The translations under genes and the position numbers were made by a program. Shown one piece after another: positions 28,853-51,849 of a stretch of DNA of 64,000 nt (within the stretch, counting starts at the first letter, position 1; every line of letters begins with the position of its first letter). The notes under the pieces are model-generated. The model worked only from the letters and a program-made list of their open reading frames with translations, searched no databases and was not told the DNA's origin. The stretch covers positions 34,144 to 98,143 of the forward strand of contig JADKGB010000013.1 in NCBI GenBank assembly GCA_016717225.1, given 5' to 3'. Source of the DNA: Flavobacteriales bacterium. Its GTDB lineage: Bacteria > Bacteroidota > Bacteroidia > Flavobacteriales_F > PHOS-HE28.

Positions 28853-30078
28853 GCGGACGCTGCGATCGAGCGGTTCGTGAGGGGTTGGGCGTCGCCCCCC
28901 CCGCCGGGCCCTCCCCCCCTCTTCCAGTTCGTGAAATTCCCACCATTGAAGAGATACACCCCGCCCGAAGTCCCGATCCAAAGCTGCCCATTGGCATCTT
29001 CGAAAAGGCTTTGGACGTTCTTGAGGCCAGCACCGTCCCGTTCCGTGTAGCAGGTGAACTTTTTTCCATCGAAGGCGCAAAGGCCGTACGCGCTCGCTCC
29101 GATCCAAATGATCCCCGCGCTGTCCTGGTAGATCACCCAAACCTGCTCGCCCAGCACCCCATCCTTTCTGCCATATGCCGTGAATGTCTTCCCGTCGTAC
29201 TTGCAGAGCCCTCCCTTGCGGGTACCGAACCACAGGTTCCCGGCCCTATCCTCCATGACGGTCTGCACGAAGTTGTTGCAGAGCCCGTCAGCTTCAGAAA
29301 GGTTGGTCAGCGTTTTCCCATCGTAGCGATAGACGCCTCCGCCATTGGTAGCGAACCAGATGTTCCCGGCCTTGTCCTGGATCATCGAGTTGATCTGTTT
29401 CGGGTACTTGTAGTAGGGGAACTTTGAAAGGTCCGAAGCAGGGATCGGGAAGGAGGTAAAGGTCTTGGAGCCTGTCCTGAGCGAAGCCGAAGGATCGAAG
29501 CGCGACACGCCTTCTTCGGTACCGAACCATAGACCTCCAGACTTGTCCACCAACAAGCAATACACCTGATCACTGGCCAGGCCATCCTTCGTTGTGTAGC
29601 GAGTGAATTTTGTTCCGCCTGCACTGAGCGTTGCCGCAGGGTCGTAGCGCGATACGCCACCTCCCGTGGCGAACCACAGATCACCATGCTCATCTTGGGA
29701 AATGCCCCCGACCCAATTGCCGCTGAACCCTTCCTGCGGCGTGAAGTACGCGAGCGACTTTCCTTCTGTCCTCAGCGAGGCCGACGGATCATATCGCGCA
29801 ACACCGTCGCTGGTGGTGCCGAACCACATGTTGCCGTCCCGGTCCTGGAATATCCGGCGGATGTACTGGCTGATCTGTTCGGTGGAAGTGGGCGGGTTCT
29901 GAAGGCGGGCCGCGAGTGTTGCGCTGTCCGGTTGCGCGGCCGGTGGTGGAGTTGAGCCGCCAGCACGCTCCGGCGGTGCAGATGACTTGACTTGTTCCGT
30001 GCAGGAAGAAACGAACAGCAGCGACCCGAGCAGGAGGGTGGACAGCTTGTATCGGCCGGATCTTCCGCTCTGAAGCAT
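28771..30078 (-). CDS. two-component-regulator propeller (Y_Y_Y-like beta-propeller) repeat lipoprotein, 3' end uncertain
   Basis: Signal MLQSGRSGRYKLSTLLLGSLLFVSSC. Repeated ...GNLWFGT..GG..RYD units. The C-terminal GGGPGGGG is encoded by C8/C7 runs. The ORF overlaps the convergent TonB-dependent receptor by ~80 nt, which suggests a frame error near 28890-28920. Confidence 0.65.
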   Translation of the reverse strand: MLQSGRSGRYKLSTLLLGSLLFVSSCTEQVKSSAPPERAGGSTPPPAAQPDSATLAARLQNPPTSTEQISQYIRRIFQDRDGNMWFGTTSDGVARYDPSASLRTEGKSLAYFTPQEGFSGNWVGGISQDEHGDLWFATGGGVSRYDPAATLSAGGTKFTRYTTKDGLASDQVYCLLVDKSGGLWFGTEEGVSRFDPSASLRTGSKTFTSFPIPASDLSKFPYYKYPKQINSMIQDKAGNIWFATNGGGVYRYDGKTLTNLSEADGLCNNFVQTVMEDRAGNLWFGTRKGGLCKYDGKTFTAYGRKDGVLGEQVWVIYQDSAGIIWIGASAYGLCAFDGKKFTCYTERDGAGLKNVQSLFEDANGQLWIGTSGGVYLFNGGNFTNWKRGGGPGGGGDAQPLTNRSIAASAQNCIRYMKSGKKPFWYTVLMRSVTGL

Positions 30079-30134: not shown

Positions 30135-30403
30135 ATCACCTGTACAAGCCGAACGCTCATCCACTCAACCACGGATCCGAGTTGTACAAGCCGGGCACGC
30201 GATCAGTGAAGGTCCGTTCGGCCCTGTACACCTGCGGCTCGGTGGCGTTCCAATGCCGTACGGTCTTGTACAGAAAGGCGCTCAACTTGGGCATGAATGC
30301 GGGACGATCGCACAACAATGCCGGTGGCATGTACAGCCGCGTTGAGCATCGCGCCGGTCTTCCTGTACACGAATGCTCCTGCCTTGTACGGGGGGGGGGG
30401 GGG
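30135..30403. repeat. array of seven YYTGTACA palindromic motifs at a ~42 bp period, terminating in a G14 homopolymer
   Basis: TGTACA at 30141, 30184, 30226, 30267, 30330, 30364 and 30385 (truncated). G14 at 30390..30403. The surrounding region 30094..30944 has no credible ORF. Confidence 0.8.
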
Positions 30404-50483: not shown

Positions 50484-50978
50484 TCACTTCTTCTTGAAGT
50501 CCAGCGAGACCGAGTTCATGCAATACCGCATGCCGGTTGGCTTCGGGCCATCATCGAACACATGCCCCAAGTGCCCGCCGCATCGGCTGCACACCACTTC
50601 GGTGCGCGTCATGCCAAAAGCTCCGTCGGTATGTTCGGCAACGGCCGTTTTTTCGATGGGCTGATAAAAGCTGGGCCAACCGGTTCCACTATCGAACTTG
50701 GTATCGCTACTGAACAACTCTTGACCACAAGCCGCACATAAGTACATCCCTTGCTCATGGTTGTCCACGTATTTGCCAGAAAAGGCCCGCTCGGTGCCTT
50801 GCTTGCGCAACACATCGAACTGTTCAGGCGTCAATTGCTTCTTCCACTCGTCGTCGCTTTTCATTACGGTATAGGTTGGGGCTTGCTGCGTTGTTTTGCT
50901 GGGCTTGGGCGTTTGGCCGCAGGCTTGGGTGAAGGTAGCTGCTGCCAGTGCCAGGATCCAGAATGGCTTGTTGTTCAT
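50484..50978 (-). CDS. msrB: peptide-methionine (R)-S-oxide reductase MsrB (lipoprotein)
   Basis: [20 protein letters not shown] lipobox. CxxC...CxxC zinc motifs and GWPSF/RYCMNS catalytic motifs. The ORF-track poly-Gly N-terminal extension is translation of the poly-C tract. Confidence 0.9.
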
Positions 50979-50985
50979 GGGGCAA

Positions 50986-51036
50986 CCCCCCCCCCCCCCC
51001 CCCCCCCCCCCCGCCCCCCCCCCCCCCCCCCCCCCC
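50986..51036. repeat. 51 nt homopolymer tract C27-G-C23 (poly-G on the msrB coding strand), 8 nt upstream of the msrB ATG
   Basis: Read directly: C run 50986..51012, G at 51013, C run 51014..51036. Confidence 0.9.
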
Positions 51037-51168
51037 GGAGCATCGGGTGGCATATGCATGAACACGTGTCGTAGGGAAGACGTTCACTCGGACATACGAT
51101 GGTTGCCAGGTCTTGGATCACATTAGCCCTTCACTCTTACATTCGCAGCCCTTTCCACAGAACCCACC

Positions 51169-51245
51169 GGACATTTAGCTCAGCTGGTTCAGAGCACTAC
51201 TTTGACAGAGTAGGGGTCACTGGTTCGAATCCAGTAATGTCCACC
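51169..51245 (+). tRNA. tRNA-Val (anticodon GAC)
   Basis: Cloverleaf: acceptor GGACATT/AATGTCC. D arm GCTC..GAGC. Anticodon stem CTACT/AGTAG with loop TTGACAG. T arm ACTGG-TTCGAAT-CCAGT. Discriminator A. CCA not encoded. Confidence 0.9.
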
Positions 51246-51321: not shown

Positions 51322-51849
51322 ATGAACCGCTCCCTGATCCTTTCGATATTGGCACTTCTGGGGGTGTTCGTGCTCTTCGTACGCCAAAGTTCGATGCTGG
51401 ACGAGTTGAGGAAAGGCAGGATTACTGGTGCCATAACCTCTGCACCGTTGAATACTACCAATGCTGCACCGGTTGTTGAGGTCGCGCATTATATGGGCCG
51501 CATTCAAAGCCACGCTGAAAAGCTCTGGTGGGCTGGCCAGGCGGGTAATTTGGAATTGGCCAAATTCTACCGGCATGAGATCAAGGAGGAGATGGAAGAG
51601 ATCGCCAACGCGGGCATCACGAACGATGGGATCCGTGTTAGCGAGAACATGAAGGTCTATGGTATTCGTGCCATAGACGCACTGAAGGCACAGATCGCTA
51701 CGGACGGATTGAAGGACTTTCCTGCGCGCTACGAAGCGTTGGTGAATACCTGCACGAGTTGCCATGCGGTTTCGGGCCATCCCGAACTGCGGATCCGCGT
51801 TCCACTGGAGAACCGCTTCACCGGCCAGGACTTTTCGATCAAACCCTAA
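51322..51849 (+). CDS. membrane-anchored protein with C-terminal CxxCH motif (possible class II c-type cytochrome)
   Basis: N-terminal TM MNRSLILSILALLGVFVLFV. Helical core. Single heme-binding motif NTCTSCHAVSGH near the C-terminus, as in cytochrome c'/b562-like proteins. Confidence 0.5.
   Translation: MNRSLILSILALLGVFVLFVRQSSMLDELRKGRITGAITSAPLNTTNAAPVVEVAHYMGRIQSHAEKLWWAGQAGNLELAKFYRHEIKEEMEEIANAGITNDGIRVSENMKVYGIRAIDALKAQIATDGLKDFPARYEALVNTCTSCHAVSGHPELRIRVPLENRFTGQDFSIKP

Follow-up and report, generated by a model that had tools for sequence, protein, structure and literature searches.

Phase-variable homopolymeric tracts are the contingency loci of Neisseria, Haemophilus, Campylobacter and Helicobacter, and contingency tracts in bacteria are roughly 6-20 nt long. 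Genomic islands linked to tRNA genes form another class of variable site and insert at the 3' end of the tRNA. Homopolymers can also be technical in origin, and errors in such runs are a known class for nanopore basecallers of the flip-flop generation (PMC6591954). At the locus described here, a much longer run of C27-G-C23 lies between msrB and a tRNA-Val gene in the window, by which we mean the whole stretch of 64,000 nt that was analyzed. The tract is most likely not biology. It is probably a technical insertion of ~54 nt, a sequencing or consensus error that survived polishing inside a correctly assembled junction.

Both the sequence and the run table confirm the 51-nt tract reported by the first-pass annotation, with C27 at 50986-51012, the single G at 51013 and C23 at 51014-51036. 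The distance to the msrB start codon had been given as 8 nt and is corrected here to 7 nt, since only TTGCCCC (50979-50985) separates the tract from the ATG, which is the reverse complement of 50976-50978. The other end of the tract lies 132 nt from tRNA-Val(GAC). As proposed, the tract occupies the expected position of the msrB promoter and 5' end, and the poly-Gly N-terminus in the list of reading frames is indeed the translated tract, within a GTG-started ORF of 193 aa. The second homopolymer that had been noted, G14, is likewise present. Together with C27 and C23 it accounts for the three G/C runs of at least 10 nt in the run table; the longest other homopolymer in the window is 8 nt. In 1.31 Mb from 102 loci of other assemblies, including 41 kb of the sister MAG, no G/C run of at least 10 nt was found. 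Base composition (C = 0.28) would predict ~1e-8 C runs of 23 nt or longer. On these three counts chance cannot explain the tract, which lies far beyond it. The features discussed below are collected in Table 1.

Table 1. Features of the msrB/tRNA-Val junction and of the second G/C-rich region in the window
Feature	Position	Strand	Description	Basis
Homopolymer tract	50986-51036		C27-G-C23 on +, G23-C-G27 on the msrB strand	sequence and run table
msrB	50484-50978	-	164 aa; N-terminal signal peptide and cysteine lipobox (TQAC)
msrB-side flank	50979-50985	-	TTGCCCC; identical in closest relatives	alignment
Garbled tRNA-side flank	51037-51050		window GGAGCATCGGGTGG, relatives AGATCGTGTGG; one T>G substitution on this strand plus extra G and C bases	alignments
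Conserved spacer of the divergent candidate promoters	51051-51168		holds tRNA-side -7-like box TACATTCG (51138-51145)	alignment
tRNA-Val (anticodon GAC)	51169-51245	+	divergent from msrB; Rfam RF00005, 67.5 bits	ARAGORN; Rfam
Predicted tract-free forms of the junction			GCCACACGATCTTTGCCCCATG; GATCTTTGCCCC; k-mer CACACGATCTTTGCCCCATGAAC
Second G/C-converted island	28884-28925		contains C8 and C7	comparison with L088, L101, L102
Private 1,011-nt segment	29934-30944		between ftsK stop and conserved propeller-gene body; contains G14
G14 homopolymer	30390-30403			run table

The MsrB protein of the window is identical to NCBI MBK9760250.1, for which GenBank annotates the 164-aa form starting at the ATG; the neighboring proteins are MBK9760247-253 (locus tags IPO90_*), and Pfam PF01641 is listed for MsrB homologues. 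An extension by poly-Gly was also looked for in MsrB from other assemblies and was rejected, the longer homologues having ordinary N-termini. Beside tRNA-Val, at 51322-51849, a protein of 175 aa is encoded that begins with a signal anchor and carries a CxxCH motif (CTSCH) toward its C-terminus. Its only Pfam match, to cytochrome c', is weak (E = 0.09). The protein is conserved in all relatives, where an ECF sigma factor and a 67-aa protein accompany it.

Relatives of the locus were retrieved via 90% protein clusters of MsrB and its neighbors. The eight contigs obtained comprise Logan SRR20217191 (L081), the sister MAG JADKHP01 (L082; locus tags IPP33_*), four ENA assemblies (L083-L086), an ENA MEGAHIT contig (L087) and NCBI JANNYL01 (L099). 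Two of them are thus MAGs from NCBI, one is from Logan and five are from ENA. They stem from at least six independent assemblies and span 83-99% DNA identity; none is of the same strain as the window. The tract is absent from all eight (L081-L087, L099). Each of them reads GCCACACGATCT/T[TC]GCCCCATG at the site, where the slash marks the insertion point, and the alignment contains no G run there in any of the eight. On the msrB strand, the window reads GCCACCCGATGCTCC-(G23-C-G27)-TTGCCCCATG, which corresponds to TTGTTCATGGGGCAA-C27-G-C23-GGAGCATCGGGTGG on the + strand. The blastn alignments to the relatives stop at 50985 and resume at 51042, and the difference from all relatives amounts to an insertion of ~54 nt if two extra C's on the msrB strand are counted.

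In seven of the eight relatives, msrB adjoins tRNA-Val with the same conserved spacer, and both flanks of the tract are collinear with these seven contigs, so the check on msrB-tRNA-Val synteny bears the arrangement out. The sister MAG is 98-99% identical to the window; the msrB side of the site gives 98.9% and the tRNA side 97.6%. Because the seven relatives keep msrB next to tRNA-Val, the tract is best read as an insertion and not as a chimeric join; the msrB/tRNA-Val junction itself is genuine, with ~54 nt inserted into it. The only independent contig found for the same strain (L096; Logan SRR11673999), 100% identical over 916 nt, stops short of the site. Exact-protein look-ups with the MsrB of the window, its 175-aa neighbor and P0122 found no contig, and scans of metagenome contigs with the msrB start and with the conserved spacer block gave no match. 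In a search of genome contigs with MsrB, the relatives among the matches listed were all at or below 71% identity.

The two flanks of the tract differ in quality. On the msrB side the sequence is clean, whereas on the tRNA side it is altered over ~14 nt, always to G or C. Degradation of one flank only, toward the base of the homopolymer, is a mark of a technical artefact, and this is the pattern found at the tract. In the relatives, a -7-like box, GATCTTTG, ends 4 nt before the ATG of msrB, and the tract is inserted exactly there, splitting the box as GATCT/TTG. A motif scan of the sister MAG found GATCTTTG to be the only 5-of-6 match to TAnnTTTG on the msrB strand. Together with TACATTCG on the tRNA side it is a candidate Bacteroidota -7 box, a promoter role being suggested by the consensus only. 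The spacer block at 51051-51100, GTGAACGTCTT[CG]CCTACGACACGTG, is kept in L081-L086 and L099 down to 83% overall identity and holds a CACGTG palindrome and an imperfect inverted repeat. This block may be an operator common to the divergent msrB and tRNA-Val promoters.

Long G/C runs are extremely rare in real sequence but common in assemblies. At least 120 IMG/VR contigs (L105-L224) carry G/C runs of at least 40 nt. Among the IMG/VR matches listed, 98 of 120 contigs (82%) have the run within 100 nt of an end and 19 have it internally; in 16% it lies more than 300 nt inside the contig. Many of the internal runs show one G/C-rich flank, as judged by eye. Some of the IMG/VR datasets with runs have low IMG identifiers and were taken as older; because of these, long runs may extend beyond recent two-colour instruments.

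A technical insertion is favored because the tract is absent in relatives, has no seed run and shows one-sided G/C garbling, and also because of the base rates just given and of a second island that breaks a conserved stop codon (see below). The absence extends over all eight related contigs and at least six independent assemblies. The true sequence of the site would then most likely be GCCACACGATCT/TTGCCCCATG, as in the sister genomes. Several observations do not fit easily. As every relative is of another strain, an insertion that is recent and private to this one would look no different in the comparison. The run is internal to a contig of 109,377 bp, whereas most runs among the IMG/VR matches listed are at contig ends, and the rest of the window is clean. 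The possibility that the whole contig is of poor consensus was considered and rejected, as there were 0 gaps against the MEGAHIT contig over 10.5 kb. The private substitutions of the window, G at 50853 and C at 50886 among them, are mostly transitions, have no strong G bias and are as numerous as those in relatives. Because these substitutions are ordinary and gaps are absent, the apparent consensus defects are local, not general.

From the accession and the locus-tag series, we infer that the window comes from the project of Singleton et al. 2021; part of the Supplementary Data of that paper lists WGS prefixes of the form JADJ.. (PMC8012365). In this project, PromethION R9.4.1 reads were basecalled with Guppy 2.2.3 flip-flop, assembled with CANU 1.8 (corMinCoverage=0) and polished by Racon with nanopore reads, twice by medaka and by Racon with HiSeq X 2x150 reads (PMC8012365). 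The pipeline keeps low-coverage regions. It also leaves homopolymer errors, because two records of one species from the same project (L103, JADJCX010000005.1; L104, JADJJQ010000005.1) differ by ~17 one- or two-base indels in 12 kb, the majority of them at short G/C runs; several genes are split differently in the two records. These differences point to residual nanopore homopolymer errors. The same artefact was sought in other MAGs of the project and was not seen in 41 kb of JADKHP01 and 42 kb of JADJCX01/JADJJQ01, a sample too small to be informative.

HiSeq X uses four-colour chemistry, so that the dark-cycle mechanism of poly-G formation is not expected, and this argues against the technical reading in its usual form. 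Likewise, the assembly of two-colour Illumina poly-G reads, which the first-pass annotation had offered as the cause, misfits a pipeline with a CANU nanopore backbone and HiSeq X polishing. Searches of the literature on poly-G artefacts, flip-flop basecalling and HiSeq X yielded no mechanism for the tract. The run could have arisen in a nanopore read, in medaka or in the Racon step that used short reads. Although a nanopore consensus normally needs several reads that agree on an insertion, the site lies ~12 nt from a real structural-variant breakpoint of co-occurring strains (see below), and few reads may have spanned the haplotype; with few spanning reads, an error could come to dominate the consensus. 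An indel of 54 nt is too long for a short-read mapper whose alignment band is 50 nt. Short-read polishing would for this reason leave the tract in place, neither removing nor validating it.

A scan for divergence islands against sister genomes revealed a second region of the same kind. At 28884-28925, an island stands in place of the final 11 codons of the propeller-protein gene and of its stop. Three relatives (L088, L101, L102), two of them Illumina assemblies, have the common sequence AACTGGACGAAGGAGGATGCGATAGGACCT.ATTGATCGG including the propeller stop, whereas AACTGGAAGAGGGGGGGAGGGCCCGGCGGGGGGGGCGACGCC is found in the window. In the 21 nt that precede the common GGGCGAC, every A/T is changed to G/C and the stop is lost; the deposited product, MBK9760230.1, has 435 aa compared with 401 aa in the three relatives. 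The island is probably a second consensus defect, and its A/T-to-G/C signature, shared with the flank of the tract and destroying a common stop, supports a technical origin for both. The other divergent islands look like ordinary substitution.

The G14 run lies in a different setting. Synteny of ftsK and the propeller gene held in part: the genes are adjacent in three relatives, in which the propeller gene starts within ~10 nt of the ftsK stop, but 1,011 nt in the window correspond to 175 nt in these relatives. Searches of this private segment against Pfam, Rfam and plasmids found nothing, and clear repeats were not seen in it; it has a weak coding signal, being mostly non-coding by codon score. 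Its last 160 nt encode an alternative propeller N-terminus with a plausible lipoprotein signal peptide, and at least this part looks like real DNA. About seven TGTACA-like motifs are found at 30140-30400 within the segment.

The foremost alternative, which we regard as unlikely, is that the tract is real. One activated-sludge Flavobacteriales strain would then have gained a private insertion, ~50 bp of poly(dG).poly(dC), at a distance of 7 nt from the msrB start, and the single -7-like box of msrB would be split by it. It would agree with the high quality of the surrounding consensus, with the exact rejoining of the native sequence and with the general dispensability of msrB genes. The spacer is in addition a genuine hotspot of structural change, and G14, G8 and G7 recur in non-coding DNA of the genome, which could reflect a genome-specific process. 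On the other side, the tract has no counterpart or seed in the eight relatives, its 51 nt are far above known bacterial contingency tracts, the 1.31 Mb of other loci hold no G/C run of 10 nt or more, and both the A/T-to-G/C garbling and the stop-abolishing island are hard to make by a known mutational process. If real, the tract would be an exceptional homopolymer as well as a natural knock-out of the promoter, and it would rank among the longest homopolymers reported for bacterial chromosomes. It would probably silence msrB, or else transcription would depend on a G-quadruplex, an i-motif or the tract length, and the recorded length itself could be wrong. Taken with the private G14 and G8/G7 runs, a real tract would point to a process, not described so far, by which long G tracts are written into non-coding DNA; we consider this rather improbable.

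The more specific proposal of a phase-variable tract is not supported, because slippage has no seed: the relatives are without a G run at the site. Nor was variation in tract length seen among strains, as the relatives lack a tract altogether. Four or more G runs of at least 3 nt, the pattern that defines a potential G-quadruplex, are trivially contained in G23-C-G27 on the msrB sense strand; no such element is conserved in the orthologous promoters of the eight relatives.

The first-pass annotation had also suggested an insertion hotspot beside the tRNA gene, and one part of this holds, as the structure of the msrB/tRNA-Val spacer varies between strains. In two other strains of the species (L087 and L090) a cassette of ~2 kb replaces the spacer (window 50998-51136; 1-313 in L087, 1-1931 in L090), the two contigs overlapping at 92.8% identity. 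The cassette carries the gene of a 448-aa protein bearing a T9SS C-terminal sorting domain, along with an ORF of 87 aa. The cassette junctions fall just beyond the two candidate -7 boxes, the one on the msrB side ~12 nt from the insertion point of the tract. The link to tRNA integration is not supported, since the cassette and the tract both lie 5' of tRNA-Val; no integrase was seen among the cassette genes, and no direct repeats fitting tRNA-linked integration were found.

A technical origin had originally been framed as a false bridge, in which two-colour poly-G tails join unrelated msrB-side and tRNA-side DNA. The technical origin stands as the best reading of the tract; the chimeric join does not, as both flanks are collinear with the seven contigs. 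Long poly-G runs are common in short-read assemblies and the degenerate flank, present on one side only, looks like a decaying read tail, but the shared spacer on both sides, the similar identity to the sister MAG across the site, the nanopore backbone and the HiSeq X short reads make this version very improbable. Scarcely credible, too, is the idea that the T9SS-protein cassette left the tract behind when it was imprecisely excised or recombined, untemplated G's being added as the break was repaired: the msrB-side cassette junction is near the insertion point, but the two are not identical, the window keeps the complete native spacer that is absent in the cassette strains, so that no excision is needed, and we know of no repair pathway that adds ~50 identical bases.

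The main value of the locus is as a flag for data quality, since a high-quality MAG in the public record appears to contain at least two local consensus defects. One gives gene callers a spurious poly-Gly extension of msrB, and the other, at 28.9 kb, removes a stop and lengthens the deposited protein. Such defects can mislead surveys of promoters, G-quadruplexes or phase variation in MAG collections. Conserved synteny can separate an artefact within a true junction from a chimeric join, and each needs a different fix.

Compared with the known systems, the tract is like contingency loci in that a G/C homopolymer separates promoter elements from the start codon, here too of a gene that is non-essential. 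It differs from them in being ~3-5 times longer, with a length (23 + 27 nt) that does not fit maintenance by slippage, in having no tract in eight relatives and no observed length series, and in splitting a candidate -7 box instead of tuning promoter spacing. Residual R9.4.1 homopolymer errors come from the same project and pipeline as the window, but they alter existing runs by 1-2 bases, whereas the tract adds ~54 bases where no run exists. From technical poly-G/C runs, in which dark-cycle or decaying read tails enter a consensus, the tract differs as follows: it is internal to its contig, it joins no unrelated DNA, and it occurs on a nanopore backbone with four-colour Illumina reads, a setting in which the usual cause would not be expected. 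In its other properties the tract resembles these runs, which are frequent in public assemblies, reach at least 40 nt with a single stray base, have one G/C-degraded flank and are absent from independent assemblies of relatives.
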